Source: Eubacteriales bacterium
GTDB lineage: Bacteria; Bacillota; Clostridia; Oscillospirales; CAG-382
Direction of reading: 5' to 3'
Length of the DNA stretch: 64,000 nt
Assembly (NCBI GenBank): GCA_045612545.1
Contig: JAZKZH010000034.1
Location: forward strand, 1,556 to 65,555
Both the position numbers and the translations under genes were made by a program. The notes below the pieces were generated by a model, which was given only the letters and a program-made list of their open reading frames with translations, searched no databases and had not been told where the DNA came from. Position 1 is the stretch's first letter. Each line of letters opens with the position of its first letter. This document shows positions 984-52,286 of this stretch, one piece after another.

Positions 984-1736
984 ATGATTTTTAACCTTTT
1001 GTATTCCGATCTGCCCATGAACATCACCATCGGGCTGATGATCCTCCAGCTGATCTGCGTGGTTCTGGCGCTGACCATCCATGAGTTTGCCCACGGCTAC
1101 GCGGCATACAAGCTGGGGGATCCCACCGCAAGCATGCAGGGCAGATTGACCTTAAATCCCTTGGCACATATTGACCCCGTGGGCTTTTTGATGATGCTCT
1201 TTGTGGGCTTCGGCTGGGCAAAGCCGGTGCCGGTGAACATCCGCTTGATGAAGGACCCCAAGAAGGGGCTTGCCATCACCTCCATGGCAGGGCCGGGAAT
1301 CAACCTGTGCCTTGCTTTGGTGTGCGGCATCGCCGTGGGGGCATTGACCCAATTCGGGTACAATCCCATGATGCTGTTTTTTGAGCTGGGGCTCAGCGAC
1401 ACCGTTTCCCCCATGGCAGTGCTTTCCTATACCTTATATATGCTCATGCTGTTGAACGTGGGTCTCGCCCTGTTCAACCTGATCCCTCTGCCCCCCTTGG
1501 ACGGCTCCAACATTCTGGTGGCCTTCCTACCGAACAACACGGCGGCAAAGTATTTGCAGGTTCGTTATTACACCCGCTATATTTTCTTGGGGATCATGGT
1601 GATCTCCATGCTGGCGGATCGGATCACTCTGTTTGCCTATCTGGATTACTACCTGTGGTTGCCCTTTGAGTGGCTGCGTGAGACCCTCTGCAACGCCTTC
1701 ATCAATTTAGGACAGTTGATTTTTAGCTTTGTATAA
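984..1736 (+). CDS. site-2 protease family (peptidase M50) membrane metalloprotease
   Basis: HEFAHGY (HExxH), several hydrophobic segments and an LPPLDG motif. ATG 984 was chosen because the 846 start overlaps the end of gpmI. Confidence 0.8.
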   Translation: MIFNLLYSDLPMNITIGLMILQLICVVLALTIHEFAHGYAAYKLGDPTASMQGRLTLNPLAHIDPVGFLMMLFVGFGWAKPVPVNIRLMKDPKKGLAITSMAGPGINLCLALVCGIAVGALTQFGYNPMMLFFELGLSDTVSPMAVLSYTLYMLMLLNVGLALFNLIPLPPLDGSNILVAFLPNNTAAKYLQVRYYTRYIFLGIMVISMLADRITLFAYLDYYLWLPFEWLRETLCNAFINLGQLIFSFV

Positions 1737-1759
1737 ACCTCTGAAGGAGAAAAACGCCC

Positions 1760-2473
1760 ATGGCGGAAGTAAATCTGAAAATTGAACAGTACGAAGGCCC
1801 TTTGGATCTGCTTCTGGCGTTGATCTCCAAGCATAAGATCGATATTTTCGACATTCCCATCGCGGAGATCTGCGAGCAGTACAACGCCTATCTGGATTCC
1901 ATGCAGAAGCTGGATATGGAGGTGGCGGGTGAGTTTATCGTCATGGCGGCGGAGCTTATGCTCATCAAGAGCAAGATGCTTCTGCCCCGTCCCGAGGACA
2001 GCGAAGACCCCCGTAAGGTGCTGGTAGACGCCCTTTTGGAGCACCAAAGAGCAAAGCTGGCCGCAGATTACCTGAAAAAGCAGGCGGATATTTATTTCGA
2101 CCGCTTCACCAAGCCTGCGGAGGAGCAGACCGACCCCACCTACCACAGAGAACACGCCGTTTCCCTTTTGCAGGAGGCCTTTGACCGCATCACCCTGCGC
2201 TTGGAGGCGGAACGGGCTCAGAAGCAGGAGGTCAAGCTGTTCAAATCCCTGCAGGAGGAGCGGTTCTACACCGTGGAAGAAAAAATGGAGCTTCTCACGG
2301 ACACCCTGCGCAGGATCCCCCGCATCACCTTTGATTCTTTGTTTTTGGAAGTCCATTCACGGGGCGAGGTGGTGGCCATCTTCCTTTCCGTTTTGGAGGC
2401 TGTCCGCTTCGGCTTTGTGGACGTGTTCCGTGAAAACGAGGACACGCTGTGGCTGAGCCTTGTGAAGGAATGA
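1760..2473 (+). CDS. scpA: segregation and condensation protein A
   Basis: The N-terminus YEGPLDLLLALISKHKIDIFDIPIAEI is the ScpA kleisin signature. An RBS (gaaggaga) lies upstream. Confidence 0.9.
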   Translation: MAEVNLKIEQYEGPLDLLLALISKHKIDIFDIPIAEICEQYNAYLDSMQKLDMEVAGEFIVMAAELMLIKSKMLLPRPEDSEDPRKVLVDALLEHQRAKLAADYLKKQADIYFDRFTKPAEEQTDPTYHREHAVSLLQEAFDRITLRLEAERAQKQEVKLFKSLQEERFYTVEEKMELLTDTLRRIPRITFDSLFLEVHSRGEVVAIFLSVLEAVRFGFVDVFRENEDTLWLSLVKE

Positions 2474-2725
2474 AGCGGCTTCGCCAATGAAGTTGCGGCC
2501 AAAGGTCGCAAATGTTATGTTGTTTCGGGAAGGAAACGGCCTCGCGCTTTGATCCAAAGGTTCCGAAAACGGCAATGCCGTTTTTGACGTCGGCGAAGCA
2601 AACCTACGCATAAGCCGGAAGCATTGTGCCGACTTGGTAGCGTACTGCAGTTCCAAAAACGATTTATCGTTTTTGACGTCGGCATAGCAAAACTACGCTT
2701 AAATCAAAAGCATTGTGCCAACTTG
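2474..2725. repeat. intergenic repeat modules: one module-D copy plus two module-C copies
   Basis: 2474-2575 matches 36228-36345. The units at 2559-2639 and 2650-2730 share AAAACG..CGTTTTTGACGTCGGC....GCCGACTTGGT with copies near 5850, 16221, 31762, 51674, 51879 and 62121. Confidence 0.75.
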
Positions 2726-3073
2726 GTCACCCTGAGCGAAGCAGGCGTGGAATAATGTTGTACCTTAGGTTGCAATGAGAAAAGCCTGCGGAGTCGAAGT
2801 TTTGCTTTTTGAAATTGCCCATTGTCTTTGGATATGCAGTTCCTTTTACAGCAATTTCGAAAAGCAAAACCGCAAGGGGTCTCCTCAAAGTCTGATCTAC
2901 CCCTACATAGGCAAACTTACATCCTTTGTGATAAAACAGTTCTTTAGCCTCGGAAAAGTATATCAGACTCTCAGTAGATCCCGCCTATCGGCGGGTTTGC
3001 TCCATCCCTCGTCGCGTTGCGACGACTACTTCCGCAAAACTTCGACTCGCCCTTCGGGCTCCCTCAGGATGAC
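2726..3073. repeat. nested-palindrome composite element, copy E1 (348 bp)
   Basis: Termini are GTCACCCTGAG (2726) and CTCAGGATGAC (3063-3073). Inner pairs are GTCGAAGTTTTGC/GCAAAACTTCGAC and GCAAAAC/GTTTGC, with the core module at 2876-2982. An extra CTCAGGATGAC lies at 3121-3131. Confidence 0.8.
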
Positions 3074-3221
3074 ACGCAGACGCGGCCGCGTGCCACCGAC
3101 TTGCCCGCAGGGTTGGTATGCTCAGGATGACGGTTAGAGTGGGTTTTGGCTTATACACAGTTTTCTTTCGCCGACATTCCTAACTTCTCCAAACAACAAC
3201 GTAAAAGCGAGGTTGGATATT

Positions 3222-3518
3222 ATGGTCATTCACGAGTATTACGTTTACATCCTGACCAACAAGACCAATTCCGTTTTATACAGCGGTGTGACCAACAGCC
3301 TTTCCAATCGGTTGGCACAACACAAAGAAGGCTCTGCAACCCATTTTACCGCACGGTACAACACCCACAAATTGGTGTATTTTGAACCCTTTTCCGGAAT
3401 CGAAAACGCCATCTCCCGGGAAAAACAGCCCAAACGTTGGACCCGTGAGAAGAAAAACCTTTTAATCGAAGCAAAAAACCCAAATTGGGATGATCTGAGC
3501 AATCAGTTCCCCATTTGA
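3222..3518 (+). CDS. stand-alone GIY-YIG nuclease family protein (UPF0213/COG2827-like), copy 1
   Basis: YYVYILTNKTNSVLYSGVTN (GIY-YIG), ...RLAQHK... and REKQ.KRW motifs. 98 aa, with 79/98 residues identical to the copy at 6349-6645. Confidence 0.85.
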   Translation: MVIHEYYVYILTNKTNSVLYSGVTNSLSNRLAQHKEGSATHFTARYNTHKLVYFEPFSGIENAISREKQPKRWTREKKNLLIEAKNPNWDDLSNQFPI

Positions 3519-3538
3519 GTTTCCCGAAAGGATATCTT

Positions 3539-4141
3539 ATGTCTATTCCCAACGAAACAATCGCATCCTTGGAAGCGGTGCTGTTCGCCTGCGGCGGCCC
3601 GGTGGAGATCCAACGCTTGCAGGAGCTGCTTGCCCTTTCTCCGGAGGAATTGGAGGAGGCGGCAAATACCTTGCAGGCAGAGCTGGAGGACGTGAACCGG
3701 GGCATCTCCCTGATCCGCGTGGAATCCGCTTACCAGCTTTGTACCAAGCCCTTTGTGGCGGAGACTGTAAAGAAGGCTCTGGAGCTTCGCAAAGCGCCCC
3801 CTCTTTCCAAGGCCGCCTTGGAGGTGCTTGCCATCGTGGCATATCACCAGCCCGTTACCCGTTCTTTTATTGAAATGGTGCGTGGCGTGGACAGCTCCTC
3901 CATCGTCAGCTCCCTGTGTGACAAGGGGTTGATCGCAGAGCGTGGCTTTTTGGACGCCCCCGGAAGACCTGCTTTGTTCGGCACCACGGAAGCGTTCCTG
4001 CGTTGTTTTGGGCTGGAATCCATTCGCGACCTGCCGGAAGCCTCTCCCGTACCGGAGCAGTTGACCCTTCCTGTAGAGGAAATTCCCGCTGAGGAAGCTC
4101 CCGCGGAGGAAGCTTCCCAAGAAGAAGCGGCGGAAGCATGA
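3539..4141 (+). CDS. scpB: segregation and condensation protein B
   Basis: SLEAVLFACGGPV...LSKAALEVLAIVAYHQPVTRSFIEMVRGV is typical of ScpB. RBS gaaaggat lies before ATG 3539. The tail is acidic and EE/PA-rich. Confidence 0.9.
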   Translation: MSIPNETIASLEAVLFACGGPVEIQRLQELLALSPEELEEAANTLQAELEDVNRGISLIRVESAYQLCTKPFVAETVKKALELRKAPPLSKAALEVLAIVAYHQPVTRSFIEMVRGVDSSSIVSSLCDKGLIAERGFLDAPGRPALFGTTEAFLRCFGLESIRDLPEASPVPEQLTLPVEEIPAEEAPAEEASQEEAAEA

Positions 4142-5298: not shown

Positions 5299-5841
5299 AT
5301 GGCATTGAAATGTATTGTTTTGGAAAATAACCCCGATAAGGAAGTGCGCCACGCCGCCGTTCTGGAAGCCGTACGGAAGTATTTCGGCTCCGACGAAGTC
5401 ATGGTCAACTACGGTGCGACGGGCAAGCCCTCCATCACCGGCGCAAAGAAGTATATCTCTGTCACCACCACCGGCGATAAGATGATCGTTGCTCTTTCCG
5501 ATTCCCCCGTAGGTCTGGACGGAGAGTATCTCCCCCGTTACAGCGAGGGCAAGACGGATTACGCCATTCTGGCGGACAGATTCTTCTCCGGCGAGGAATC
5601 CGAGTACGTCCATGCAGGCTCTACCGTGGCGGAGGAAAAGGATCGCTTTATGAAGATCTGGACCCGCAAGGAAGCTTACGTAAAATGCACCGGCAAGGGT
5701 GTGGCAGACTTCCCCGCCTTCTCCGTTCTCGAGGGAGATAAATTCCTCTCCAAGGTGGGCAATATTCCTCTGCGGAAGTTCTCCATCTCCTTTGAAGGAT
5801 CTGAAAACTACCTCTTCGCCATTGCGGGAGAGCTGAAGTGA
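5299..5841 (+). CDS. 4'-phosphopantetheinyl transferase superfamily protein (Sfp-type)
   Basis: GLDGEYL (metal-binding D.E) and WTRKEAYVKCTGKG motifs. ATG 5299 follows the ytfJ stop. Confidence 0.7.
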   Translation: MALKCIVLENNPDKEVRHAAVLEAVRKYFGSDEVMVNYGATGKPSITGAKKYISVTTTGDKMIVALSDSPVGLDGEYLPRYSEGKTDYAILADRFFSGEESEYVHAGSTVAEEKDRFMKIWTRKEAYVKCTGKGVADFPAFSVLEGDKFLSKVGNIPLRKFSISFEGSENYLFAIAGELK

Positions 5842-5977
5842 CATAAATGTCAATGCCGTTTTTGATGTCGGCGAGGCAAACCTACGCATAAGCCGGAAGC
5901 CGTCCGCCGACTTGGTCACCTCTGAGCAACCCAGCCCGTTGGGCTGGCTCGCGCGGAATAGAGCCGTTACGGCTTCT
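5842..5977. repeat. module-C copy plus a GTCACCTCTGAGC terminus-like piece and a hairpin
   Basis: 5850-5919 reads ..GCCGTTTTTGATGTCGGCGAGGCAAACCTACGCATAAGCCGGAAGC..GCCGACTTGGTCA, followed by the hairpin CCCAGCCCGTTGGGCTGG. Confidence 0.7.
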
Positions 5978-6292
5978 GTCATCCTGAGCGAACGCGAAGC
6001 GTGAGTCGAAGTTTTGCGGAAGTAGTCGTCGCAACGCGACGAAGGATGGAGCAAAACCAAGGGGTGCTTGCACCCCGAAGGGATCTCCTACGAATTTGAT
6101 CTACCCCTACACGGGTAAAGTTACATTTTTTCGGCAAGAAAAGGTACATCAGACTCTTATTAGATCCTCCCTCATCGCAAAGCGATTCGGGCCTCTCACT
6201 CGGACTCACGTCACTCGTTCGAGTTCGACTCGTCGGGGATTATCTACCGTGTCTCAATCGCAACGTATTACTCCCTCCTCCCTCAGAATGAC
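5978..6292. repeat. nested-palindrome composite element, copy E2 (315 bp, right arm degenerate)
   Basis: GTCATCCTGAG at 5978, core variant at 6080-6167, CTCAGAATGAC at 6282-6292. The left arm is nearly identical to the arms of E4 and E7a. Confidence 0.75.
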
Positions 6293-6348
6293 AGGTTGGG
6301 ATGAGTTACGTTGTCGCCCTACTACACTCATTTTTTGAAAGGGATTGT

Positions 6349-6645
6349 ATGGTCGTTCACGATTATTACGTTTACATACTGACCAACAAGACCAACAGCG
6401 TTTTATACATCGGTGTCACCAACAGCCTGTCCCACAGGCTGGCACAGCATAAAGAAAGCGGGGAAAATCACTTCTCCGCACGGTACAACACCCACAAATT
6501 GGTGTATTTTGAACCCTTTGCAGGGGTGGATAACGCCATCTCCCGAGAAAAGCAGTTAAAACGCTGGACACGGGAAAAGAAAAACCTTTTGATTCAATCC
6601 AAAAACCCAAATTGGGAGGATCTGGGCGGTCAGTTTCCGCTTTGA
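6349..6645 (+). CDS. stand-alone GIY-YIG nuclease family protein, copy 2
   Basis: Same length (98 aa) and motifs as 3222-3518. ATG 6349 lies 56 nt after the CTCAGAATGAC terminus. Confidence 0.85.
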   Translation: MVVHDYYVYILTNKTNSVLYIGVTNSLSHRLAQHKESGENHFSARYNTHKLVYFEPFAGVDNAISREKQLKRWTREKKNLLIQSKNPNWEDLGGQFPL

Positions 6646-6669
6646 TCTTTGTTCCCGAAAGGAAATTAC

Positions 6670-6972
6670 ATGATTACCACCAAACAAAGAGCGTATCTGC
6701 GCTCCATTGCCGCACAGCTTACCCCCATCATGCAGGTTGGCAAGAACGGCGTCACCGAAAACTTAGTAAAAACCCTTTCCGATTCCTTGGAAGCCCACGA
6801 GATCATCAAGCTCACCGTCCTGGAGGCTTGCCCCATGACCGCAAGAGAGGTGTCCGATGCCCTTTGCGTCGCCCTGTCCTGCGAGGCGGTGCAGACCATC
6901 GGCAGAAAGATCTCCCTGTACCGTCAGGCTTCCGAGAAGGAAAAGCGGAAGATCGTATTGCCCAGAGGCTAA
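6670..6972 (+). CDS. yhbY: YhbY/CRS1-type RNA-binding protein (ribosome assembly)
   Basis: TTKQRAYLRSIAAQLTPIMQVGKNGVTENL....HEIIKL is the YhbY (CRM domain) pattern. RBS gaaagga lies upstream. Confidence 0.8.
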   Translation: MITTKQRAYLRSIAAQLTPIMQVGKNGVTENLVKTLSDSLEAHEIIKLTVLEACPMTAREVSDALCVALSCEAVQTIGRKISLYRQASEKEKRKIVLPRG

Positions 6973-7013
6973 AATACCCGCCTCGGCGGGCTGCGAAAGG
7001 CATACAGACAACC

Positions 7014-7442
7014 ATGAAAATTTTGATCTTAAACGGCCCCAACATCAATATGCTGGGAATTCGCGAGCCGGAAATTTACGGCAAACAAAATTACAAAGCC
7101 CTGCTTTCCTTTATCGGAGAGGTCTGTGAGGGTCTGGGCGTGGAATACCAGTGCTACCAATCCAACCACGAGGGTGCCTTGGTAGACAAGATCCAGGAGG
7201 CTTGGGGAGTGTTTGACGCCATCGTGTTCAACCCCGCCGCCTATACCCACACCAGCGTGGCCATCCACGATGCTCTGTTGGCCGTGGCCATTCCCACCGC
7301 AGAGGTGCATTTGACGGATACCACCTCCCGGGAGGACTACCGCAAGGTGAATTTCATCACCCCCTGCTGTGAGAAAACCTTCCAAGGACACGGCTTTGAC
7401 AGCTACCGTATGGCAATCGAATATTTTGCCAAAAAGAGCTGA
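7014..7442 (+). CDS. aroQ: type II 3-dehydroquinate dehydratase
   Basis: ILILNGPNINMLGIREPEIYG....SNHEG..VD.I....FNPAAYTHTSVAI.DAL. The part of the ORF track upstream of 7014 overlaps yhbY and is not used. Confidence 0.9.
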   Translation: MKILILNGPNINMLGIREPEIYGKQNYKALLSFIGEVCEGLGVEYQCYQSNHEGALVDKIQEAWGVFDAIVFNPAAYTHTSVAIHDALLAVAIPTAEVHLTDTTSREDYRKVNFITPCCEKTFQGHGFDSYRMAIEYFAKKS

Positions 7443-7449
7443 AAATATC

Positions 7450-7479
7450 TTGACAAATCCCTTTGAGGTGTGTTATACT
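7450..7479 (+). promoter_or_regulatory. sigma-A-type promoter for tRNA-Ala
   Basis: TTGACA (7450-7455), 18-nt spacer, TATACT (7474-7479), about 12 nt before the tRNA 5' end. Confidence 0.6.
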
Positions 7480-7490
7480 ACACCTCGCAC

Positions 7491-7566
7491 GGGGCATTAG
7501 CGCAGTTGGGAGCGCACAACACTGGCAGTGTTGGGGTCAGGGGTTCAAGTCCCCTATGCTCCACCA
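7491..7566 (+). tRNA. tRNA-Ala (anticodon GGC), CCA encoded
   Basis: Hand-folded cloverleaf: acceptor stem GGGGCAT/ATGCTCC with the G3:U70 alanine identity pair, anticodon loop CTGGCAG, T-loop GGTTCAAGTCC, 76 nt. Confidence 0.9.
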
Positions 7567-7571
7567 GAAAA

Positions 7572-7597
7572 AAGCACTTCGAAAGAAGTGCTTTTTT
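7572..7597 (+). terminator. rho-independent terminator after tRNA-Ala
   Basis: AAGCACTTC-GAAA-GAAGTGCTT followed by TTTT. Confidence 0.8.
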
Positions 7598-7600
7598 CAA

Positions 7601-7774
7601 CTAAGTGTTCCGCTTGCGCGGAACGTTAAGTATCCTTCGGACGTGAAGTGAGGCTACGCCTCGTGAAGTGCGCTTCGCGCGATAAGATGCGGAACACTTA
7701 ACTTCTCTGCTCCGAAGGAGCAACTTCACTATGCCGTAAGGCATAACTTCACTGCGGCACAGCCGCAACTTCAC
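7601..7774. repeat. hairpin-linker array (GTGAAGT x2, then AACTTCACT x3, interleaved with short GC hairpins)
   Basis: GTGAAGT at 7643 and 7663; AACTTCACT at 7722, 7744 and 7766. Intervening hairpins: GGCTACGCC, GCGCTTCGCGC, GCTCCGAAGGAGC, ATGCCGTAAGGCAT, GCGGCACAGCCGC. GTTCCGC/GCGGAAC pairs at 7607-7624 and 7690. Confidence 0.7.
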
Positions 7775-7775
7775 T

Positions 7776-7804
7776 ATTGAAATATTTGCAAGTATGTGGT
7801 ATAA
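7776..7804 (+). promoter_or_regulatory. sigma-A-type promoter for the four-helix-bundle/GNAT pair
   Basis: TTGAAA (7776-7781), 17-nt spacer, TATAAT (7799-7804). Confidence 0.6.
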
Positions 7805-7829
7805 TGTTGGTGAAAGCGAGGTGCATATC

Positions 7830-8192
7830 ATGTCCGATTCAAAACTCCGCACACAATCCATGGATTTTGCAGTTCAAATCATAAATCTTGTTAAATCACT
7901 TAAAGAAAAACGGGAATCTATTATTTCTAATCAAATCGGCAGAAGCGGCACCTCTATTGGAGCAAACATTCGTGAAGCACAATATGCTCACGGTAAGGCG
8001 GATTTTATTGCCAAACTTCAAATAGCACTCAAGGAAGCAAATGAAACGGGATATTGGTTAGAGTTATTGTATAAAACAAACTACATTACCGAAAGCGAAT
8101 ACAAAGCGCTTGATTCCGCTTGCACGAGTATTAGAGTAATGCTTATATCTTCCATCAACACCGCTAAGGAGAACAGAAATAGCAATGCTTGA
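7830..8192 (+). CDS. four-helix-bundle protein (23S rRNA intervening-sequence protein / Avd-like family)
   Basis: IGRSGTSIGANIREAQYAHGKADFIAKLQIALKEANETGYWLELL is the family signature. RBS gaggtg lies 7 nt before the ATG. The gene is AT-rich. Confidence 0.8.
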   Translation: MSDSKLRTQSMDFAVQIINLVKSLKEKRESIISNQIGRSGTSIGANIREAQYAHGKADFIAKLQIALKEANETGYWLELLYKTNYITESEYKALDSACTSIRVMLISSINTAKENRNSNA

Positions 8193-8613
8193 AGAAGTAA
8201 TTATTCGCTTTGGCACAGAATTAGAAAAAGAAAAACTGTTAACTGATTATCCGAATATTCAGAATGTCATTGGTGATGGTGGATACTTTATAATAGCCGC
8301 AATTAAAGATACAGTTGTTGGTTATCTATGGGCTTTTAGGCGAAAAATTCCTGCACCTGTTGAGCAAAGTGAGATATTTATAAATATAATTGAGGTCATC
8401 CGCACGAATTTGCGGTGTCAGGGCATTGCATCCCAAATGCTGAATGTAATTATAAATACGGCCAAACAAGAAGATGTTTATCAAGTTCGCGCTTACTGCG
8501 ATATAAGGAACGTGCCATCTCATCGGCTTTGGATGAAAAATAAATTTTCGATTAGTCCGGTAAAAATGCCGGACGGTTCCATTGTAGGTTCTTTCGTCAC
8601 ATATATTTTATAA
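8185..8613 (+). CDS. GNAT family N-acetyltransferase
   Basis: The RCQGIASQMLNVIINTAKQ segment matches the acetyl-CoA binding motif A (R/Q-x-x-G-x-A/G). Overlaps the upstream gene by 8 nt. AT-rich. Confidence 0.65.
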   Translation: MLEEVIIRFGTELEKEKLLTDYPNIQNVIGDGGYFIIAAIKDTVVGYLWAFRRKIPAPVEQSEIFINIIEVIRTNLRCQGIASQMLNVIINTAKQEDVYQVRAYCDIRNVPSHRLWMKNKFSISPVKMPDGSIVGSFVTYIL

Positions 8614-8660
8614 AGCATAGTAAAGTTGCATCACACACCTTTTTACTGCTCTTTCACAAA

Positions 8661-8691
8661 AAAGGACTTTCTTCGGAAAGTCCTTTTTTTA
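8661..8691 (+). terminator. rho-independent terminator after the GNAT gene
   Basis: AGGACTTTC-TTCG-GAAAGTCCT followed by a T7 run. Confidence 0.8.
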
Positions 8692-8846
8692 TCCAAACCG
8701 CGTAGGGGTTCCCGTAGACTTGGTATATCATCGCCGCGCGAAGTGCGGTGCATATCACTTTCCGTCCCCCCTTGCATTTCTTCCTTTTTTGTGGTAAACT
8801 ACGAAATACAAACGAAAACAGATTGATTCAAACAAAGGAAAAAACG

Positions 8847-9383
8847 ATGAAAAAACAAACGTACATCCTTCTCGGGGTCGCAGCGTTGCTGTTGGTAATC
8901 GGTATTATCGTCACCGTCCTCTTTTGCGCAAAAAGCGATCAAACCACAGATGGTGTCATTGACACGGTGGAAGAGGCCGAAGCGATCTTAATCCCTGTGA
9001 TTTCGGAAACCTTTGCAGGATCCACCCTGCCGGGAGAAGAGCTTCCCGCCTTTTTGACAAAGCTGGAATCCCTGCAGACCTTCCAGGTGTTATCCTTGGA
9101 GCCGGAGAAAGAAGAAGTCGTGGTGGTCACCCTGTCCATCGGCGCCCCCGACCTTACGCAAGTAATTGAAGCCGTGGACAAGCAGGGTCAGCTTTCCCAA
9201 GACGAAATGAACTCCGCTATTGAAGAGGCCATCAAGAAAGCGCCTTTGCGGAAAGAAGAGGTAACGGTTACCTTCTACAAGCTGGAAGATGCCTGGTATC
9301 CTCAAATCACCGACACCTTTTTCAACGCTTGCTACGGCGGCGTGTTGGAGATCTATGAAGATTTGTTGGGAGGTGCAAACTGA
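8847..9383 (+). CDS. hypothetical membrane-anchored protein
   Basis: MKKQTYILLGVAALLLVIGIIVTVLF is an N-terminal anchor. RBS aaaggaaaaaa lies upstream. The stop overlaps the next ATG (TGATG). Confidence 0.6.
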   Translation: MKKQTYILLGVAALLLVIGIIVTVLFCAKSDQTTDGVIDTVEEAEAILIPVISETFAGSTLPGEELPAFLTKLESLQTFQVLSLEPEKEEVVVVTLSIGAPDLTQVIEAVDKQGQLSQDEMNSAIEEAIKKAPLRKEEVTVTFYKLEDAWYPQITDTFFNACYGGVLEIYEDLLGGAN

Positions 9384-11623
9384 TGGGCAAGAAAATCGTT
9401 GTATGGTTGCTCCTTTTTGCAACCTTGCTGAGCTGTTCCCCTGCGGTGATCGCGGAAAGCGGCTCTGCATATACCAAAAACAAGGTACAAGTTTGTTTTA
9501 ACGGGGCCACCTATACCAAGGAGGTTCTCAAAGCCACCGACGGTACCGTATACGTGCCCATTGATTGGTTGACTTTTTTCGGACTGATGTACTCAAAGGA
9601 GCACGAGGATTATTTTGAGTTTTACGATCCCGCCCACGAAAATCCGGTTCGATACACCAAAAGAGTCTTTATCAACAAGGACGGAACCTACGAGATCGGT
9701 TTTTACGCAGGAAAAAGTCTTTCCGATCTGGCGTTGGAGCCTCTCAAGTTATACATGCAATACTCCAATAACCTTTCTGCCGAAGCCTCAAGACAACTGC
9801 TGGAGTACGTCAAAAAGAAAGATCCTGCGTTTTACAAGGAATGCTCCGAACGTCTGGCCGGTGCTAAAAAAGGCTACTCCATCATGGTGGAAGGCAATTT
9901 CTCCAAAACCTTTTGGCAGGACGGCAAGTATTGGGTTCCCATGAGGGCATTTTTACCCCTTTTTGACGCCCACGTGGATATCAAGGACGGCAAGATACAG
10001 ATCATGTCCGTAACCGTTCCTATCTGGAAAGCCCTGACGAAGTGGGATCTCAGCGAGATCGTATTCCGCGCAGACGACGAGATGCTGGGGGAAGAGCTCC
10101 TCACTGCGGGTTATTACACGATCACCACTATTGTCGACAGACGTTACGATCGGATTGTCAGTTCCAAAAACGGAGCTGAAGCCGATTACCAAGAACTGTT
10201 CAAAGCATATTTGGTAGACAACAAAACCTATCTTTCCTCCTTCGATGGGGAAGGCCACCTACGGCAGGAGACCATGAAGGAGCTCTTCGGCTACTTCACC
10301 CAAATGGATTCCGCCCTTTCCTCCTACGAAACGTTGTATGACGTGGCGGAAGCTCTTGGACAAAGCGCAGAATTTCTTACGGAAAACTTTTTGCTGAAGG
10401 AAAGCGACGTAACCGGCGTTGTGGGAATGGCCCTGACCGCCGCCGACAAGGTGTTGAATTACGCTTTTATTTACGAAAACCAGGTAAAAGATCACCGAGA
10501 AATGCTGGGGACGATGTATGAATATTACGCTTCTCTGGGTGCCACCAAAACCGAAAGAGCAGAGCGTAAAAAGTACCCCTCTTACAAAGCGGCGCTGAAC
10601 GTTCAGGCTTTGTACGCTAAAAATGCCGATAGCATAATCGCCATCGTCCGACAGGGAATGGAGGATCTTACGTATGAATTGTTTTCTTCAGCCATGGAAG
10701 ATCTGGTCCCCAGCGCCATGAAGCCCGCAACCATTACCTTCGACGTGGTCACGGGAATTATGAAAACCTTCGGCAATTACGATAACGTGAAAAACGGTTC
10801 TCTTACCTTAAAGGCAGACACCGTATGCAAGGAATCCTACAATTGCTACGCCACAGCCCGTTCCATCATGCCCGCCAACGGAGATGAATTTGAACGGCTC
10901 AGGCTGCTTGCGTTGATGACGCTGGTATCCTCCCACCATGCTTTTACGACCTACAGATCTCTTTCCGAAAAGATCGATTCCATAGAAGAAATGCTGGTGG
11001 ATTTCTATATGGCGGCGGAAAGCACCCCCATGTACAGCGTGGAGTATATTTCGAAGACCTCCGTGGACCTGTATTGGAAGCAGCAGGATCTGAATTTGAT
11101 CGAAATCAAGCCCGTGGATTGGGAACAAAGCAAGGCAGAGATTCTGCGCATCGTCGGCACCATGGGTCCCTGTGAGGAGTTTTACTTTAAAGCGGAAGCC
11201 TTCCTGTATACCGATACGCAGCCGGAGTACGTTAAGCGGGAAGAAAATTACTATGATGAAGAGCTGGACAACACCTTCTACATATATTACTACAAAAAAT
11301 CCGACGTGTATTCATGGAGTAAAAGATATTTCGGAACGGTTTTCGACGATGAGCAGTATCACAAGAAATCCTGGTCTTATGAATTAGTTTTGGACGGAGA
11401 TTATCTGATCGTAGTGGAACTTGACATTGATCCCCGCGCTTTCCGCATAGCTAAATTTGTAAAAGAAGTTTCTTCCGATCCAAAGAAAGGTTTGTTCGTA
11501 TGGCATTGTCTGTATGGTTTTGAATATAACGATGGTGAGGACCTCATGGATATTCTCGTCACCGTGCAAAAAACCGACCAAGGCTATTCTCTTCGCAAAA
11601 TCGAACCCATGGACGAGACATAA
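9383..11623 (+). CDS. hypothetical secreted 746-aa protein (N-terminal segment resembles a copper-amine-oxidase-N/stalk-like domain)
   Basis: Signal peptide MGKKIVVWLLLFATLLSCSPAVIA. VCFNGATYTKEVLKATDGTVYVPIDWL weakly resembles the stalk domain. No other motif recognised. Confidence 0.6.
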   Translation: MGKKIVVWLLLFATLLSCSPAVIAESGSAYTKNKVQVCFNGATYTKEVLKATDGTVYVPIDWLTFFGLMYSKEHEDYFEFYDPAHENPVRYTKRVFINKDGTYEIGFYAGKSLSDLALEPLKLYMQYSNNLSAEASRQLLEYVKKKDPAFYKECSERLAGAKKGYSIMVEGNFSKTFWQDGKYWVPMRAFLPLFDAHVDIKDGKIQIMSVTVPIWKALTKWDLSEIVFRADDEMLGEELLTAGYYTITTIVDRRYDRIVSSKNGAEADYQELFKAYLVDNKTYLSSFDGEGHLRQETMKELFGYFTQMDSALSSYETLYDVAEALGQSAEFLTENFLLKESDVTGVVGMALTAADKVLNYAFIYENQVKDHREMLGTMYEYYASLGATKTERAERKKYPSYKAALNVQALYAKNADSIIAIVRQGMEDLTYELFSSAMEDLVPSAMKPATITFDVVTGIMKTFGNYDNVKNGSLTLKADTVCKESYNCYATARSIMPANGDEFERLRLLALMTLVSSHHAFTTYRSLSEKIDSIEEMLVDFYMAAESTPMYSVEYISKTSVDLYWKQQDLNLIEIKPVDWEQSKAEILRIVGTMGPCEEFYFKAEAFLYTDTQPEYVKREENYYDEELDNTFYIYYYKKSDVYSWSKRYFGTVFDDEQYHKKSWSYELVLDGDYLIVVELDIDPRAFRIAKFVKEVSSDPKKGLFVWHCLYGFEYNDGEDLMDILVTVQKTDQGYSLRKIEPMDET

Positions 11624-11662
11624 TGCAATTTTTCCTCAAAAAAAGACCTCGAAAGGGGTCTT

Positions 11663-12094
11663 TTATTTTGCCAAATTGATGATATTTTTCTTCTTTTTGA
11701 CAGCAAACTCCAAAGTTTTATACGCTCCTCCAAAGGAATTTATAACGTATGCAATGATAAGATCCGCCTGCAAAACCATCCATTGATTTCGCTTTGAAAT
11801 AGCGTACCGCGGAGGCACTGTCTCCAAAGGCGGGTAAAGAATCTCATTGTACAGCTTGCTCTCTTCCGATGAAGCATTCAAATACGGAGTAACGAAAACC
11901 AACTCTGCAAAAACGCCTTCTGCCATCAGTTTTCGGCAGGCTCTCATACACAAATGATCAAAATTTCCGTATCCGCCGCAATAAAAGGAAACCTTTTCAT
12001 TTGACGGAAGGCTTGCTTTTACTGTGTCTATCACTTTTTGAAAGATTTCTTCCCCGTAACAAAGTGACCCGTGTCCAACAAAGGTAATAATCAT
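11663..12094 (-). CDS. SLOG/DUF1273 (YpsA-like) Rossmann-fold protein
   Basis: IITFVGHG...YCGGYGNFDHLCMRAC...SKRNQWMVLQADLIIAY resembles the SLOG pattern (GHR..GGA.G.D..A...RN..mv..sd.li). The ATG at 12094 has GGAG 6 nt upstream. AT-rich. Confidence 0.45.
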   Translation of the reverse strand: MIITFVGHGSLCYGEEIFQKVIDTVKASLPSNEKVSFYCGGYGNFDHLCMRACRKLMAEGVFAELVFVTPYLNASSEESKLYNEILYPPLETVPPRYAISKRNQWMVLQADLIIAYVINSFGGAYKTLEFAVKKKKNIINLAK

Positions 12095-12108
12095 ATTCAT
12101 CTCCAAAA

Positions 12109-12217
12109 TCGTGGAATTCCGATATTTATAGTATCATACTTTTCTAAAACTGTCAATATCGTGGAACTCCACGAGAGAATCTTTTTAATATCGTCTATAA
12201 TTATCATGGAATTCCGA
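12109..12217. promoter_or_regulatory. three related 14-16 bp palindromic operator candidates in the SLOG/XRE divergent spacer
   Basis: TCGTGGAATTCCGA (12109-12122), TCGTGGAACTCCACGA (12159-12174, perfect 7+2+7 palindrome), TCATGGAATTCCGA (12204-12217). TATAAT at 12196-12201. Confidence 0.6.
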
Positions 12218-12236
12218 GAGAAGGAGCCATTGACCG

Positions 12237-12470
12237 ATGACGATGAACGAAGCGATCCTGAAACGGATCTACGAGCTTTGTAACGAAAAGAAGATCAATA
12301 TCTGTGACACCTGTCTGAAAGGCGGGATGTCTCCTTCCGCCATTTACGACCTGACGAAGGGACGTACCAAATGTCCTAAAGTTATTACCGTAAAAAGGTT
12401 TTGCGAAGGGGCGGGGATCACTCTGCGGGAATTCTTTGATAAACCTTATTTTGACGAAACGAACGACTAA
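12237..12470 (+). CDS. XRE-family helix-turn-helix transcriptional regulator (77 aa)
   Basis: The segment ..GMSPSAIYDLTKGRTKCPKVITVKRFCEGAGITLREFF is a Cro/C1-type HTH pattern. Confidence 0.7.
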   Translation: MTMNEAILKRIYELCNEKKINICDTCLKGGMSPSAIYDLTKGRTKCPKVITVKRFCEGAGITLREFFDKPYFDETND

Positions 12471-12472
12471 AA

Positions 12473-12497
12473 AAAGACCCGGACGGGTCTTTTTTGT
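12473..12497 (+). terminator. rho-independent terminator after the XRE gene
   Basis: AAGACCC-GGAC-GGGTCTT followed by TTTTTG. Confidence 0.8.
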
Positions 12498-12560
12498 TGG
12501 ATGGAAACCGTTACAAGGCGGGCGGATTCGTGAATCGCCCCTGCACTCTCGTAGCATAAC

Positions 12561-12582
12561 GGGACGCCGTGAACGTCGTCCC
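12561..12582. repeat. solitary REP-like hairpin
   Basis: GGGACGCCGTGAACGTCGTCCC belongs to the same family as the copies at 20681, 20809, 21421, 24288, 24400, 45473, 54951, 55101, 55390 and 55540. Confidence 0.7.
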
Positions 12583-15246: not shown

Positions 15247-15449
15247 ACCATAAGAATCCTTTCTGTTTTGTCAATCATAGTTCAGTATAGCATTGTTAAA
15301 GGAAAAAGTCAATGGGGAGAGAATCTACTTTTTTTCTTTTTGGAAAGAAAAAAAGTAGCGCAAAAAAAGAAAACCCGGTGCCAAAAACTGTCGTTTTTGG
15401 GAGGAAGAATATATTTTATAAGCAAAACCAAAAGATGAACGCCGACTTG

Positions 15450-15738
15450 GTCATCTCTGAGCATACCAACCCTGCGGGTTGGCGAGTCGAAATTTTCGTA
15501 GTGAGGCATGGCCGAACGGAGAAAATCAAGGGGTGCTTGCACCCCGAAGGGATCTCCTCAAAGTCTGATCTACCCCTACAAAGGCAAACTTACATCCTTT
15601 GTGATAAAACAGTTCTTTAGCCTCGGAAAAGTATATCAGACTCTCAGTAGATCCCGCCTGCGGCGCTTTTTGATGCTCAGCGCTACGCGCTTCGACTACA
15701 AAAAGTTCGACTCACGCTTCGCGTTCGCTCAGGATGAC
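15450..15738. repeat. nested-palindrome composite element, copy E3 (289 bp)
   Basis: GTCATCTCTGAG at 15450, core at 15549-15655, CTCAGGATGAC ending at 15738. Arm stems are ATTTTC/GAAAAT (left) and CTTTTTG/CAAAAAG (right). Confidence 0.8.
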
Positions 15739-15778
15739 ACGCAGACATAGCCGCATACCGCCGACTTGGTCATCCTGA

Positions 15779-16206
15779 GCGGAGCAGGCGTGGAATAATG
15801 TTGTACCTTAGGTTGCAATGAGAAAAGCCTGCGGAGTCGAAGTTTCCGCAGTTCAGGCGCAGCCGAACAGCGGAAACCAAGGGGTGCTTGCACCCCGAAG
15901 GGATCTCCTCAAAGTCTGATCTACCCCTACAAAGGCAAACTTACATCCTTTGTGATAAAACAGTTCTTTAGCCTCGGAAAGGTATATCAGACTCTCAGTA
16001 GATCCCGCCTGCGGCGGTTTTTGCCGCTCAGCGCCGCATTGCACCAACCCAAGAAAAACAGCTTGCCTGTTTTTCATGTCGGCGGTATACCGTTATCTAT
16101 GCACCATACGCAATGCGCCGACTTCGACTGCAAAAACTTCGACGTGCGCGGAGATGACTGTATTGCACAGCCGTAACGACTACGACCCGCGCGTGCTCAG
16201 GATGAC
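15779..16206. repeat. nested-palindrome composite element, copy E3b (428 bp, right arm carries an internal insertion)
   Basis: GTCATCCTGAG at 15779, core at 15900-16006, CTCAGGATGAC at 16196-16206. Arm stems are GTTTCCG/CGGAAAC and GTTTTTGC/GCAAAAAC. Confidence 0.8.
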
Positions 16207-16220
16207 ACGTAGCCGCTACG

Positions 16221-16370
16221 GTTCCAAAAACGACTTGTCGTTTTTGACGTCTGCGAAACAAAACTACGCATAAACCGAAGGATGACCAAGTCGGCACAAT
16301 GCTTTTGGTTTAAGCGTAGTTTTGCTATGCCGACGTCAAAAACAGCTAATGCTGTTTTTGTTGGATTTTG
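16221..16370. repeat. two module-C copies in head-to-head (inverted) arrangement
   Basis: GTTCCAAAAACGACTTGTCGTTTTTGACGTC...ACTACGCATAA...GACCAAGTCGGC...TTAAGCGTAGTTTTGCTATGCCGACGTCAAAAACAGCTAATGCTGTTTTTG. Confidence 0.7.
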
Positions 16371-20680: not shown

Positions 20681-21445
20681 CGGGAGGTCGAGGCGCCCTC
20701 CCCTACAAACCCGAGCCTTGAAAAACAAAAAAATAAACCTTTTCTCCCGCATAGAAAAAAGTTCATTGCGTGAAAACACGGTTAGATTTTCATTTATACA
20801 TCCTGCGGTTTCGTAGGGGACGGCGCCCTCGACGTCCCGCAAAAATAAAAAGGTGGTCATTTTCTTGACTCTTCCAAAAAGAAAACCAATTCGTTTGAAG
20901 GAATTCAGCTACAGCAACGGCGGATCGTATTTTCTTACACTTTGTGTTCAGGACAGACAAAAGATTTTATCGAAGATAGAGCCGCTTTTTGAATGTAAGT
21001 TTGTTAATGAACTGCCGAGAGACGTTTATCCCTTTGATGGTGATGACAGATACCTACGGGTCATCCCTACGGAGATAGGAAAAATTACGGAGAAATATAT
21101 TTTATCCTCAGAAAAAATACAAGGTGTGATCATTGACGATTACGTGATTATGCCGGATCATGTTCATATTGTTGTTTCTATAACGGATGAGTCGGTTTTA
21201 AAACAAGAGGTAAAAAACGAAAAAATTCCAAAGATCGTTTCCGCATTGAAGCGTTTGATTCAAAAAGAGGTTGGCAGACCGATTTTTCAAAGAGCGTATT
21301 ACGACCACGTGATCCGTAATCACGAGGATTATGAAAATATTTTGGCCTATATTCATCAAAATCCGGCAAGATGGTATTTTCGTCGGTTGAATGGAAAAAT
21401 GAAAGTTGATTGAGATCGGGCGGGAGGTCGAGGAGCCCTCCACCT
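20681..21445 (+). mobile_element. RAYT locus: REP doublet + IS200-like Y1 transposase gene + REP
   Basis: REPs at 20681-20709, 20809-20840 (inverted, ends 12 nt before the ORF) and 21421-21445 (starts 8 nt after the stop). The gene body is AT-rich and the REPs are GC-rich. Confidence 0.75.
20853..21413 (+). CDS. REP-associated tyrosine transposase (IS200-like, HUH/Y1 family)
   Basis: KPIRLKEFSYSNGGSYFLTLCV, HUH motif MPDHVHIVV, and the catalytic-Tyr helix FQRAYYDHVIRNHEDYENILAYIHQNPARW. Confidence 0.8.
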   Translation: MVIFLTLPKRKPIRLKEFSYSNGGSYFLTLCVQDRQKILSKIEPLFECKFVNELPRDVYPFDGDDRYLRVIPTEIGKITEKYILSSEKIQGVIIDDYVIMPDHVHIVVSITDESVLKQEVKNEKIPKIVSALKRLIQKEVGRPIFQRAYYDHVIRNHEDYENILAYIHQNPARWYFRRLNGKMKVD

Positions 21446-24287: not shown

Positions 24288-24429
24288 CCGGGACGCCGAG
24301 GGCGTCGTCCCCTACGGTCATGGACGAGTAGGGAAAGCAGCCGTTACCGATGCAAAAACTTGTTGCGTATACCCTTGTTCGCACAAAACAAGGCGCGTAT
24401 TCGTAGGGGACGACGCCCACGGCGTCCCG
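24288..24429. repeat. REP doublet (two inverted REP hairpins about 80 nt apart) in the gyrB-gyrA spacer
   Basis: CCGGGACGCCGAGGGCGTCGTCCCCTACGG (24288-24317) and TTCGTAGGGGACGACGCCCACGGCGTCCCG (24400-24429). Confidence 0.8.
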
Positions 24430-24543
24430 TTTGCGTGGAATCTTGCAACGAATTTTCGCTGTACTCCGTGCGGGAACTTGGGTTCGATTCCAATTGATTA
24501 TTGATTTACAGCATAGATCTCATAAAGACAAGGAGAAATTCCA

Positions 24544-31358: not shown

Positions 31359-31701
31359 GTCATTCTGAGGGAGCCCGAAGGGCGAGTCGAAGTTTTGCGG
31401 AGAAAACAAGGTGCATACAGCGGCATAAAAGCAGTTTGCTTTTTGATCTGCATCGGCCGCGATGCACCGTTCGGAGCAAAACCGCCGCAGGCGGGATCTA
31501 CTGAGAGTCTGATGTTCCTTACCAAAGGAAAAGAACTGTTTTATCACAAAGGATGTAAGTTTGCCTTTGTAGGGGTAGATCAAATTCGTAGGAGATCCCT
31601 TCGGGGTGCAAGCACCCCTTGGTTTTGCTCCATCCTTCGTCGCGTTGCTACGACTACTTCCGCAAAACTTCGACTCACGCTTCGCGTTCGCTCAGGATGA
31701 C
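31359..31701. repeat. nested-palindrome composite element, copy E4 (343 bp, core inverted)
   Basis: GTCATTCTGAG at 31359, GAGTCGAAGTTTTGCGGAG, GGAGCAAAACC, core at 31493-31599, GGTTTTGCTCC, TCCGCAAAACTTCGAC, CTCAGGATGAC ending at 31701. Confidence 0.85.
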
Positions 31702-35888: not shown

Positions 35889-36187
35889 GTCATCCTGAGC
35901 AAGCCGCGAATGCGGCGCGTCGAAGTTTTGCGGAGAAAGCAAGGTGCTTTAGCACCGTTCGGAGCAAAACCGAAGCCTGCGATAGCGGGCTGAGGGATCT
36001 CCTACGAGTTTGATCTACCCCTACATGGATAAACTTACATCCTTTTTTGATGGAACAGTTCTTTACCCCCCCCAAAAAGGAACATCAGACTCTCAGTAGA
36101 TCCCGCCTGCGGCGCTTTTTGATGCTCAGCGCTACGCGCTTCGACTACAAAAAGTTCGACTCACGCTTCGCGTTCGCTCAGGATGAC
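35889..36187. repeat. nested-palindrome composite element, copy E5 (299 bp)
   Basis: GTCATCCTGAG at 35889, core at 35994-36104, right arm CTTTTTG/CAAAAAG identical to the right arm of E3, CTCAGGATGAC ending at 36187. Confidence 0.8.
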
Positions 36188-40776: not shown

Positions 40777-40921
40777 GGGGGTGTCCTGCCTTTTTCGTTT
40801 CGTTTTCTTTAGTGTAGCATAAAAGAACGGGATTTGCAAGAAAAAAATGAAGGTTTTGGAAGGAAGGTATGTTTTATGCCGGCTTTTGCTAAGGCGTATA
40901 CCAAACCCTCATCCCAGCCTG

Positions 40922-41100
40922 CCATCTCTGAGCATACATTTCAAAACGCAAGGCTTGGAAGGATGTAAGTTTACCCGTGAAGGGGTAGATCGGACTCATA
41001 GGAGACCCCTCAACCTGCAAGCAGGTCTCGGTTTCCTTCGCTCAGCTTCGCTTCGACTACGGAAACTTCGACTCGCGCGAGCGCGCTCGCTCAGGGTGAC
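40922..41100. repeat. truncated composite element, copy E6
   Basis: CATCTCTGAGC at 40922, half core (GGATGTAAGTTTACCCGTGAAGGGGTAGATCGGACTCATAGGAGACCCC), right arm GTTTCC/GGAAAC, CTCAGGGTGAC ending at 41100. Confidence 0.65.
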
Positions 41101-41153
41101 AATCGGGGTGGGTGCGGCAATTTCCTCAGTGCATTCACGTTAAACCCTCGGTC

Positions 41154-41472
41154 ACATCTCCATACTCACGTCTGCTTGCACTACACAGGTGTCCGGGGGT
41201 AACCGTAACGGACTCCCGGGTACTAACGCCCGGAAATTTGCACCATACCATGAAAAACGACATGAATCAAAACTGATCCATGTCGCTTTTGTAGGTCATG
41301 TCGTTTTTGGGGCGTGAGGAACCGATGGTAACATCTCCATACTCACGTCTGCTTGCACTACACTCAAAAAAACGACATGAATTGTTTCCAATCCATGTCG
41401 CTTTCTGTGCCATGTCGTTTTTTAGGTGTCCGGGGGTAACCGTAACGGACAGCTGAGTACTAATGCCCGGAC
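41154..41472. repeat. shuffled duplication X-Y-Z / X-Z-Y downstream of tpiA
   Basis: X at 41154-41186 = 41331-41363. Y at 41187-41235 resembles 41424-41472. Z at 41253-41308 resembles 41366-41423 (a long A5/T5-flanked hairpin AAAAACGACATGA...TCATGTCGTTTTT). Confidence 0.75.
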
Positions 41473-50555: not shown

Positions 50556-50560
50556 GTGTT

Positions 50561-51322: not shown

Positions 51323-51676
51323 GTCATCCTTGAGCTCAGGTTTGCAAGCAAACCGTCGAAGTTTTGCGGAAGTAGTCGTCGCAACGCGACGAGGGATGGA
51401 GCAAAACCGCCGCAGGCGGGATCTCATAAGAGTCTGATGTTCCTTTCTGTAACGAGAGAACTGTTTTATCACAAAGGATGTAAGTTTACTTTTCAAGGGG
51501 TAGATCAGACTTTGAGGAGACCCCTTGCGGTTTTGCTTTTTAGAAATTGCTGTGGAAGACAGAACCACTTCCAAGATTTCGGGGCAATTTCAAAAAGCAA
51601 AACTTCGACTCCGCAGGCTTTTCTCATTGCAACCTAAGGTACAACATTATTCCGCGCCTGCTTCGCTCAGGGTGAC
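51323..51676. repeat. nested-palindrome composite element, copy E7a (354 bp, core inverted; mirror image of E1)
   Basis: GTCATCCTTGAG at 51323, core at 51418-51524, the same TTGCAACCTAAGGTACAACATTATTCC insert as E1/E3b, CTCAGGGTGAC ending at 51676. Confidence 0.8.
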
Positions 51677-51969: not shown

Positions 51970-52286
51970 GTCATCCTGAGCACGCGCGGGTCGTAGTAGA
52001 TGTGGCTACGCATTACAGTCATCTCCGCGCACGTCGAAGTTTTGCGTAGGTGAGCGTAGCGAACGAAGCAAAACCGCCGCAGGGGGGATCTACTGAGAGT
52101 CTGATATACCTTTTTGGGGGGTAAAGAACTGTTTTATCACAAAAAATGTAAGTTTACCTATGTAGGGGTAGATCAAATTCGTAGGAGATCCCTTCGGGGT
52201 GCAAGCACCCCTTGATTTTCTCCGTTCGGCCATGCCTCGACTACGAAAATTTCGACGGCTTGCTTGCAAGCCTACTCAGAGATGAC
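51970..52286. repeat. nested-palindrome composite element, copy E7b (317 bp, core inverted)
   Basis: GTCATCCTGAG at 51970, core at 52085-52192, right arm ATTTTC/GAAAAT (same variant as the left arm of E3), CTCAGAGATGAC ending at 52286. Confidence 0.8.

Follow-up and report, generated by a model that had tools for sequence, protein, structure and literature searches.

The Ssn family of nucleases (cd10448) was described by Chenal et al. (Nat Commun 2025; PMC11893778), whose SsnA of Neisseria meningitidis is a protein of 94 aa with a single GIY-YIG domain. SsnA binds NTS solely as single-stranded DNA (ssDNA) and cuts it a few nt to the 5' side; cutting depends on the GTC, binding on the C that follows the palindrome, and the enzyme acts neither on the opposite strand nor on duplex DNA or RNA (PMC11893778). 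The enzyme reduces transformation by repeat-bearing DNA, and an SRM lies near 71% of Ssn homologs, on both sides in 42% (PMC11893778). According to the same paper most Ssn homologs occur in Gram-negatives, and it offers the IS-like arrangement NTS-ssnA-NTS and the comparison with REP/RAYT as hypotheses only (PMC11893778). The other system close to the locus described here is the CGTC-tagged REP superfamily of Di Nocera et al. (BMC Genomics 2013; PMC3733652), which includes dRS3 of Neisseria and RPE-4/6 of Rickettsia. Its members carry a CGTC or TGTC tag, have a stem starting with AT and form head-to-head dimers, and the superfamily "apparently lacks a dedicated transposase" (PMC3733652).

We analyzed a stretch of 64,000 nucleotides (the window), in which two GIY-YIG genes lie beside composite palindromic repeats. 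In an earlier note on this DNA, gene plus repeat had been taken as a candidate new mobile system of which no described family was known; such a family is on record as the Ssn/SRM system (PMC11893778), and the window therefore adds a Clostridia member with an unusually elaborate repeat to a known system rather than revealing a novel type of mobile element. The window ORFs are very likely Ssn-family ssDNA endonucleases, with the GTCATCCTGAG-ended palindromes as this lineage's version of the SRM. What is new is the host, a presumed spore-forming member of the Clostridia, the repeat variant, which falls outside the published SRM pattern, and an apparent exchange of the ORF between paralogs.

Two single-domain GIY-YIG genes and their surroundings

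Paralog 1 (3222..3518, + strand) is located between scpA (1760-2473) and scpB (3539-4141; ScpB PF04079), and paralog 2 (6349..6645, + strand) directly 5' of yhbY (6670-6972; YhbY PF01985), in a window with a G+C content of 52.8% that also holds a YtfJ sporulation gene and aroQ. Both encode a 98-aa nuclease consisting of one GIY-YIG domain, and the coordinates and the 79/98 identical residues given for them earlier hold; at the nucleotide level 245/297 bases are identical, both ORFs are intact, and the codon differences comprise 22 synonymous and 19 non-synonymous ones. Pfam GIY-YIG PF01541 matches both proteins (E 3e-16 for paralog 1, 3e-17 for paralog 2) and spans residues 6-78 of the 98 aa, with no other domain or extension found in the Pfam search. 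NCBIfam gave sub-threshold matches only, including the group I intron endonuclease model TIGR01453, whose E of 2e-4 is far below the cut-off. A tblastn search of the whole window found no third ssn copy, and an exact-protein look-up found no contig with the same sequence as paralog 1.

The similarity to SsnA was evaluated by alignment. Paralog 2 shares 46% identity with N. gonorrhoeae SsnA over 85 aa (BLASTP, E 1e-25), and the window protein matched the N. gonorrhoeae chromosome in tblastn with an E of 5e-16 in a 7.3-Gb database; by the criterion for SsnA homology of the Ssn paper (E < 1e-10), the window protein is a homolog. Y9, Y20 and E67 of paralog 2 align with Y6, Y17 and E64 of SsnA, the residues essential for cutting, and the Y, Y, R, H, E and N residues were invariant in an alignment of 21 homologs. 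The AlphaFold model of paralog 2 (pLDDT 83.6) adopts the GIY-YIG fold, and its best PDB matches were UPF0213 BH0048, Slx1 and the N-terminal domain of UvrC, with no Ssn-family protein among them. The UPF0213/YhbQ/Slx1-type proteins (PDB 1ZG2, 1YWL, 4XLG) are the nearest solved structures by sequence (E 3e-8) as well as by fold, but at ~25-30% identity to the window protein they belong to other subfamilies. Slx1 has additional domains and cuts branched duplex DNA, and to our knowledge no repeat association has been reported for proteins of the UPF0213/YhbQ/Slx1 type.

The paralogous stretch is essentially the ORF alone, extending from −7 to about +20 nt. As described before, the ORFs end 20 and 24 nt before the start of scpB and yhbY, and these short tails (3519..3538, + strand, TTTCCCGAAAGGATATCTT, after paralog 1; 6646..6669, + strand, TCTTTGTTCCCGAAAGGAAATTAC, after paralog 2) bear the ribosome-binding sites of scpB and yhbY, respectively, supplied in both cases by the common segment TTCCCGAAAGGA. 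The ssn genes are probably co-transcribed with scpB and yhbY. On the other side of paralog 2, the 56-nt leader from the repeat terminus to the ATG (6293..6348, + strand) contains an AAGGG ribosome-binding site, and its first ~33 nt move with the repeat in a related contig (the duplicated unit of L084). The leaders of the two genes are barely related from terminus to ATG, contrary to the earlier impression of a related sequence just past the terminus. Among the matches listed, the nearest public relatives of the window are Clostridia/Oscillospiraceae metagenome bins.

Architecture of the composite repeats

Nine composite copies were delimited in the window, two linked to ssn and seven without an ORF; the latter number is the same as that counted previously, one of the seven being a half copy. 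The motif GTCATYCTGAG (≤1 mismatch) occurs 15 times in the window as compared with 1.8 expected, i.e. ~8-fold more, and 0/100 shuffles reached 15. Upstream of paralog 2, the composite repeat at 5978..6292 is a 315-nt doublet, whose left arm is composed of GTCATCCTGAGC-[hairpin]-GTCGAAG-TTTTGC..GCAAAA-[hairpin]-GGGATC and whose terminus CTCAGAATGAC (6282-6292) lies 56 nt 5' of the ATG at 6349. Upstream of paralog 1, the composite repeat at 2726..3073 is a doublet in which two expanded SRM-type hairpin repeats, inverted relative to each other, enclose a conserved core; it begins with GTCACCCTGAG at 2726, ends with CTCAGGATGAC at 3063-3073, and has modules in common with other copies (D1/D10/I8/I14/I19). 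It is followed by an extra repeat fragment (3074..3131) that ends in a second CTCAGGATGAC at 3121-3131, 90 nt 5' of the ATG at 3222. The distances of 90 and 56 nt confirm that a CTCAGRATGAC terminus precedes each ORF by 56-90 nt; the one adjoining paralog 1 is indeed present, but it is part of the extra fragment, not the end of the main copy. At both ssn loci core and gene point the same way (direct repeats D5/D10), as had been remarked before, although with n = 2 this agreement carries no weight.

The copies without an ORF differ from one another mainly at their ends and in their modules. The left terminus of 15449..15738 is degenerate (GGTCATCTCTGAGC), and so is the right terminus of 51970..52285 (CTCAGAGATGA); 15769..16206 (438 nt) has an additional module in the right arm, and 51323..51676 has a 1-nt insertion in the left terminus. 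In 31359..31701 the core is inverted relative to the ssn-linked copies, and this copy shows an inverted match to 5898-6131 (I1, 90% over 234 nt). The best palindrome of all copies is 35889..36187, and the half copy at 40917..41100 comprises half of the core and one arm with the end CTCAGGGTGAC (D13, I25). Terminal inverted repeats of 11 nt (GTCATCCTGAG / CTCAGGATGAC) are found in six full copies, and 8-12 nt outside the tag are semi-conserved among the window copies. Copies have exchanged modules with one another, and the tags adjoin further repeat modules, so that the clusters are mosaics.

The anatomy of an arm can be written as GTC-ATCCT-GAGC-[variable hairpin]-GTCGAAG-TTTTGC-GGA-[variable hairpin]-GGA-GCAAAA-CC-[variable hairpin]-GGGAT-C, in which the small hairpins vary between copies by compensatory changes (ACGC/GCGT, GCCGC/GCGGC, GCCC/GGGC), and the core conserved between facing arms as GATCTACCCCTAC...AAACTTACAT...CATCAGACTCT...AGATCC. 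The window arm is a basic SRM of the form GTC-ATCCT-GAGC-[hairpin]-GTCGAAGGAT-C, enlarged by nested variable hairpins and paired into a REPIN-like doublet of ~300 nt; the expanded loop gives ~110 nt per arm. As ssDNA, the complete doublet forms a single long branched hairpin in which its two termini pair (−62.7 kcal/mol, z −5.4, for 35889-36187; −51.1 kcal/mol, z −2.1, for 5978-6292), and a single arm is closed by a stem of only ATCC/GGAT plus T·G across a branched loop of ~95 nt. The doublet core is rare, with 7 stretches in public metagenomes, mostly in one assembly of close relatives.

We then compared this architecture with the published repeats. The degenerate SRM pattern of the Ssn paper gave 0 matches in the window and 1/82 in the related loci, whereas the same pattern gave 8 and 4 matches on the Neisseria and Azospirillum controls (L085 and L087), respectively. 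The clade around the window protein has an SRM variant of its own, with the same GTC-ATCCT-GAGC-[hairpin]-GTCGAAGGAT-C plan, in which the closing stem is short and bases of the internal loop are conserved; its simple form is GTCATCCTGAGC-hairpin-GTCGAAGGATC. Since the published pattern misses the large GTCATCCTGAGC...GAAGGATC class, which goes along with Ssn homologs in many phyla, the system has been under-counted. In addition, the window repeats belong in the CGTC-tagged REP superfamily, with which they share the (C/T)GTC tag, the stem starting with AT, the short tail and the mostly head-to-head dimers. They differ from it in that its stems are 8-9 bp and its loops 4-5 nt, whereas the window repeats have a closing stem of 4-5 bp and a branched insert of ~95 nt.

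Association of gene and repeat across phyla

In order to evaluate how generally the gene and the repeat occur together, one genome per species was scanned with the homolog alignment, by which at least 80 loci with 82 genes were retrieved. The loci listed are distributed over Clostridia, Bacteroidota, Proteobacteria, Patescibacteria, Actinobacteria, Chloroflexota and others, the homologous proteins sharing 48-63% identity with the window protein among the matches listed, and in loci of unrelated phyla an exact GTCAYYCTGAG was found within tens of nt of the gene. Hairpins were scored by a generic rule (GTC, a stem of ≥5 bp beginning at A, then C); a strict scanner with a 6-bp stem had overlooked the main repeat class and was replaced by the 5-bp stem plus C.

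A tagged hairpin was present within 150 nt of the gene in 67/82 of the homologs listed, and the hairpin density near the gene was 6.8/kb versus 0.25/kb elsewhere in these loci, a 27-fold difference. With the hairpin lying wholly inside the flank, 62/82 were positive, as compared with a mean of 2.1 (max 7) in 200 shuffles. The stem covaries between genomes (ATCCT/AGGAT, ATCCC/GGGAT, ATTCC/GGAAT, ATTGC/GCAAT). The cross-phylum enrichment rejects chance co-location, and the GTCAT-tagged palindromes truly form a functional pair with the GIY-YIG gene; to this extent the interpretation given earlier was right. Regarding the layout among the 82 genes, a forward hairpin upstream was observed in 45, a reverse hairpin downstream in 43 and both in 33, the last being the commonest, IS-like arrangement. 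A reverse hairpin upstream was found in 26/82, a minority layout that is also that of the window, where both ssn genes have the repeat on the upstream side only and in reverse orientation.

In 47/67 loci the flanking 12-mer tag did not recur in the remainder of the retrieved locus (median about 14 kb), indicating that the hairpins belong primarily to the gene's own unit and have been amplified in some genomes only. The homologs of N. gonorrhoeae, A. lipoferum and S. meliloti are flanked by their own genomes' CGTC-type REPs, and it is precisely the hosts of the CGTC-tagged REPs that have homologs of the window protein. The Ssn gene is the partner that was missed for these REPs by Di Nocera et al. 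2013. A scanner for 5-bp stems with long loops did not detect the window's own repeats, owing to the T·G in the closing stem, so that the substrate in the window may be the whole doublet or the tag region only.

The assignment of the window genes to the Ssn/SRM system thus combines several likenesses: a single-domain GIY-YIG protein of 94-98 aa with 46% identity and the Y/Y/E catalytic residues kept; a GTC tag and a palindrome starting with AT, followed by C; and repeats that adjoin the gene and recur in many further copies, often as inverted intergenic pairs. The differences are the spore-forming Clostridia as host, a repeat outside the published SRM pattern, a loop with nested hairpins that brings each arm to ~110 nt, ~300-nt doublets with a conserved core, and a one-sided, reverse repeat at two paralogs 3 kb apart. 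The system is hereby extended into spore-forming gut Clostridia, and the expanded doublet-forming repeats are candidate enzyme/site pairs for ssDNA tools.

By homology to the characterized Neisseria and Wolbachia enzymes, a repeat exposed as ssDNA at replication forks, during recombination or in incoming DNA would fold into its hairpin, the nuclease would bind the stem and the C after it, and hydrolysis would take place on that strand a few nt 5' of the GTC tag, leaving its complement as well as duplex DNA and RNA uncut. The window enzymes would, by analogy, act likewise on the window repeats. The likely effect would be the cutting of SRM-bearing single strands, by which recombination at or around the repeats would be modulated, and cutting may also cause the repeats and the ssn ORF itself to spread or become homogenized.

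Mobility and other explanations

Compatible with membership of the Ssn system is the idea that repeat and ssn form an active mobile unit, a minimal IS-/REPtron-like element whose nuclease would move itself as well as the ORF-less doublets, its MITE/REPIN-like derivatives; we regard this as possible but doubtful. The IS-like layout in 33/82 homologs listed speaks for it, and so do the 47/67 loci in which the tag has no other copy. In Azospirillum lipoferum 4B, a doublet-ssn-doublet block of ~560 nt separates sufB from sufC; A. ramasamyi, B510 and A. brasilense, whose flanks are 91-97% identical, lack this block and have no SRM at their empty sites, and the position of paralog 1 between scpA and scpB parallels this insertion. 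The Azospirillum insertion has no clean boundaries, however, and no target-site duplication was found at any of the nine window copies when flanking direct repeats were looked for. The window repeats resemble MITEs and IS elements in their terminal inverted repeats, but differ in having neither target-site duplication nor transposase fold, the only enzyme being a hydrolytic nuclease. A GIY-YIG enzyme cannot transpose DNA alone, since it hydrolyzes without a covalent intermediate and cannot join DNA, and we know of no strand-transfer activity of the characterized Ssn enzyme.

The relatives of the window contribute evidence on both sides. In favor of mobility, there are two ssn paralogs within 3 kb, and in one related contig (L083) the ORF has been exchanged between loci, its flanks being 98.6% like locus 2 and its ORF 92.6% like paralog 1. 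The yhbY-linked ORF of L083/L084 follows paralog 1 at roughly 40/52 informative sites and reverts near the 3' end, which makes it an ORF-sized conversion tract between the paralogous loci. Arms have been swapped as well: between the orthologous copies in the related metagenome contig L096 and at 35889-36187 of the window, left arm and core are 205/217 identical (94.5%) and the flanking genes 78-88%, and the right arm in L096 is a different module. Against recent mobility, the yhbY-linked gene is found at an unchanged position in relatives whose proteins are 80-95% identical, and repeat copies are found in the same intergenic regions of relatives with 78-93% nucleotide identity; in one orthologous repeat copy, conservation (88.8%) falls short of that of the adjacent coding sequence (93%). 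No excision or insertion event was observed in these comparisons. An autonomous mobile unit with MITE derivatives is therefore unproven, and the repeats look less like an active transposon than like REPIN-like populations that have long been resident and still recombine.

RAYTs are IS200/IS605-like HUH tyrosine transposases. The REPIN-RAYT systems and the locus described here have in common a tagged hairpin, inverted doublets, mosaic clusters and a small nuclease gene between its own repeats, as well as a presumed action on single-stranded hairpins and a long persistence in the lineage; they differ in the enzyme, which is unrelated in fold and chemistry, HUH-Y1 with a covalent intermediate there and a GIY-YIG hydrolase here, and in the tag, GTAG there and GTC here. 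Nicking of ssDNA hairpins by Ssn might copy or homogenize the repeats and the ssn ORF via repair or gene conversion, a proposal that we consider improbable enough to be called speculative. If it were true, hairpin nicking would constitute a second REPtron-like system, independent of RAYT and built on a hydrolytic nuclease, and a separate, expanded class of SRM, overlooked by current search patterns, would be present in Clostridia and many other phyla. The exchange of the paralog ORF, the arm swapping and the presence/absence in Azospirillum provide test material on the propagation of repeats by Ssn.

A classical free-standing homing endonuclease would cut the duplex of ssn-less alleles and be copied by double-strand-break repair, with the repeats as landing pads. 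GIY-YIG is a fold of homing endonucleases, TIGR01453 matches weakly, and the conversion tract between the paralogous loci is the size of an ORF. On the other hand, the window protein has no DNA-binding extension, unlike I-TevI and the Seg proteins, its nearest characterized relative does not cut duplex DNA (PMC11893778), and the gene is fixed 5' of yhbY in relatives, so that homing appears most improbable. Equally hard to sustain is the explanation of the repeats as RNA elements (terminators, attenuators or small RNAs) whose permissive intergenic space the GIY-YIG genes merely share: the repeats are intergenic and contain variable hairpins with compensatory changes between conserved segments, but no Rfam family relevant to them was matched at gathering thresholds or at E up to 5, the copies lie in both orientations relative to the neighbouring genes, terminator and promoter scans stayed at chance level, SsnA binds no RNA (PMC11893778), and a shared permissive space cannot account for the 27-fold enrichment near ssn genes across phyla.

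A further contig (L091/L098), in which scpA is joined directly to the repeat-ssn2-yhbY segment, was set aside from the comparisons, as this junction may be either a repeat-mediated deletion or an assembly chimera; its two halves show 99.5% and 90.5% identity.

ssn-linked units and junctions in related sequences

In L084, a related contig with a yhbY-linked ssn gene, positions 1-440 hold a unit made of the doublet and the 33 nt past its terminus, which is found twice in tandem upstream of ssn; therefore, the repeated unit can extend past the GTCAT tag, even though this tandem arrangement, seen in one related contig, may be an assembly artefact. At the Sinorhizobium meliloti ssn locus (pSymB record, L086), a residual 3' end from a further ssn copy lies together with its downstream hairpin at 2230-2320, upstream of the ssn homolog, and this sequence indicates a second ssn copy, tandem or decayed.

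A 2.9-kb metagenome contig (L091/L098, JAEIGA010227135.1) has scpA fused straight onto repeat-ssn2-yhbY-aroQ, leaving out ssn1, scpB and three further genes relative to the window. The two parts of the contig correspond to window 1201-2543 and 6054-7566, with identities of 99.5% and 90.5%. The junction is either the product of a repeat-mediated deletion or rearrangement, or else an assembly chimera across the repeat.

A variable segment and duplicated protein genes

A segment of about 4 kb (7581-11639), which starts directly after a tRNA gene (7491-7563) and includes genes for a 23S rRNA-intervening-sequence protein (7794-8192) and a GNAT acetyltransferase (8185-8613), is missing from the otherwise syntenic relative L082. 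The adjoining stretch 11639-12582 is 97.7% identical to L082 compared with about 85% for the remainder, suggesting a recent exchange of this stretch.

The minus-strand stretches 48833-49108 and 49710-50573 comprise a gene for a patatin-like phospholipase that carries DUF6363 at its C terminus and, 0.9 kb from it, a truncated second copy of the DUF6363 part. The DUF6363 part forms a direct repeat of 154 nt with 95% identity (48895-49048 and 49766-49919), and the pair is a partial gene duplication flanking an unannotated 164-aa ORF. Two neighbouring minus-strand ORFs of 645 and 306 aa, neither of which matched any Pfam family, contain in-frame 18- and 21-nt tandem repeats (29399-29515, 30204-30340). 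Since they have in common a 300-nt stretch with 83% identity (27703-28002 and 29720-30019), they are paralogous repeat-rich proteins.

Other repeat families in the window

A second repeat module, in which an AAAACGG..CCGTTTTT hairpin is followed by GACGTCGGCG...GCCGACTTGGTC, occurs in at least five copies, with both orientations represented (2560-2727, 5838-5916, 16220-16346, 51676-51940 and 62121-62172), and frequently adjoins the GTCA tag of SRM-type repeats to form BIME-like mosaics. A unit of about 190 nt (GGTCACATCTCCATACTCACGTCTGCTTGCACTACAC...GGTGTCCGGGGGTAACCGTAACGGAC), present twice at 41140-41472, adjoins the half SRM doublet and has no relation to the SRM repeats.

A palindromic unit of 16 nt, GTGAAACGTTTTCACA, resembling a cre/LacI-type operator, is repeated in tandem at 55252-55335 and 55692-55743; both arrays fall inside a duplicated segment of about 260 nt (55036-55296 and 55475-55736, 95-97% identity). 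A 39-nt hairpin repeat family, GCGTATTCGTAGGGGACGACGCCCACGGCGTCCCG, has four copies in the window (20805-20843, 24395-24433, 55096-55134 and 55535-55573) and one in the related genome L082 (2289-2359).
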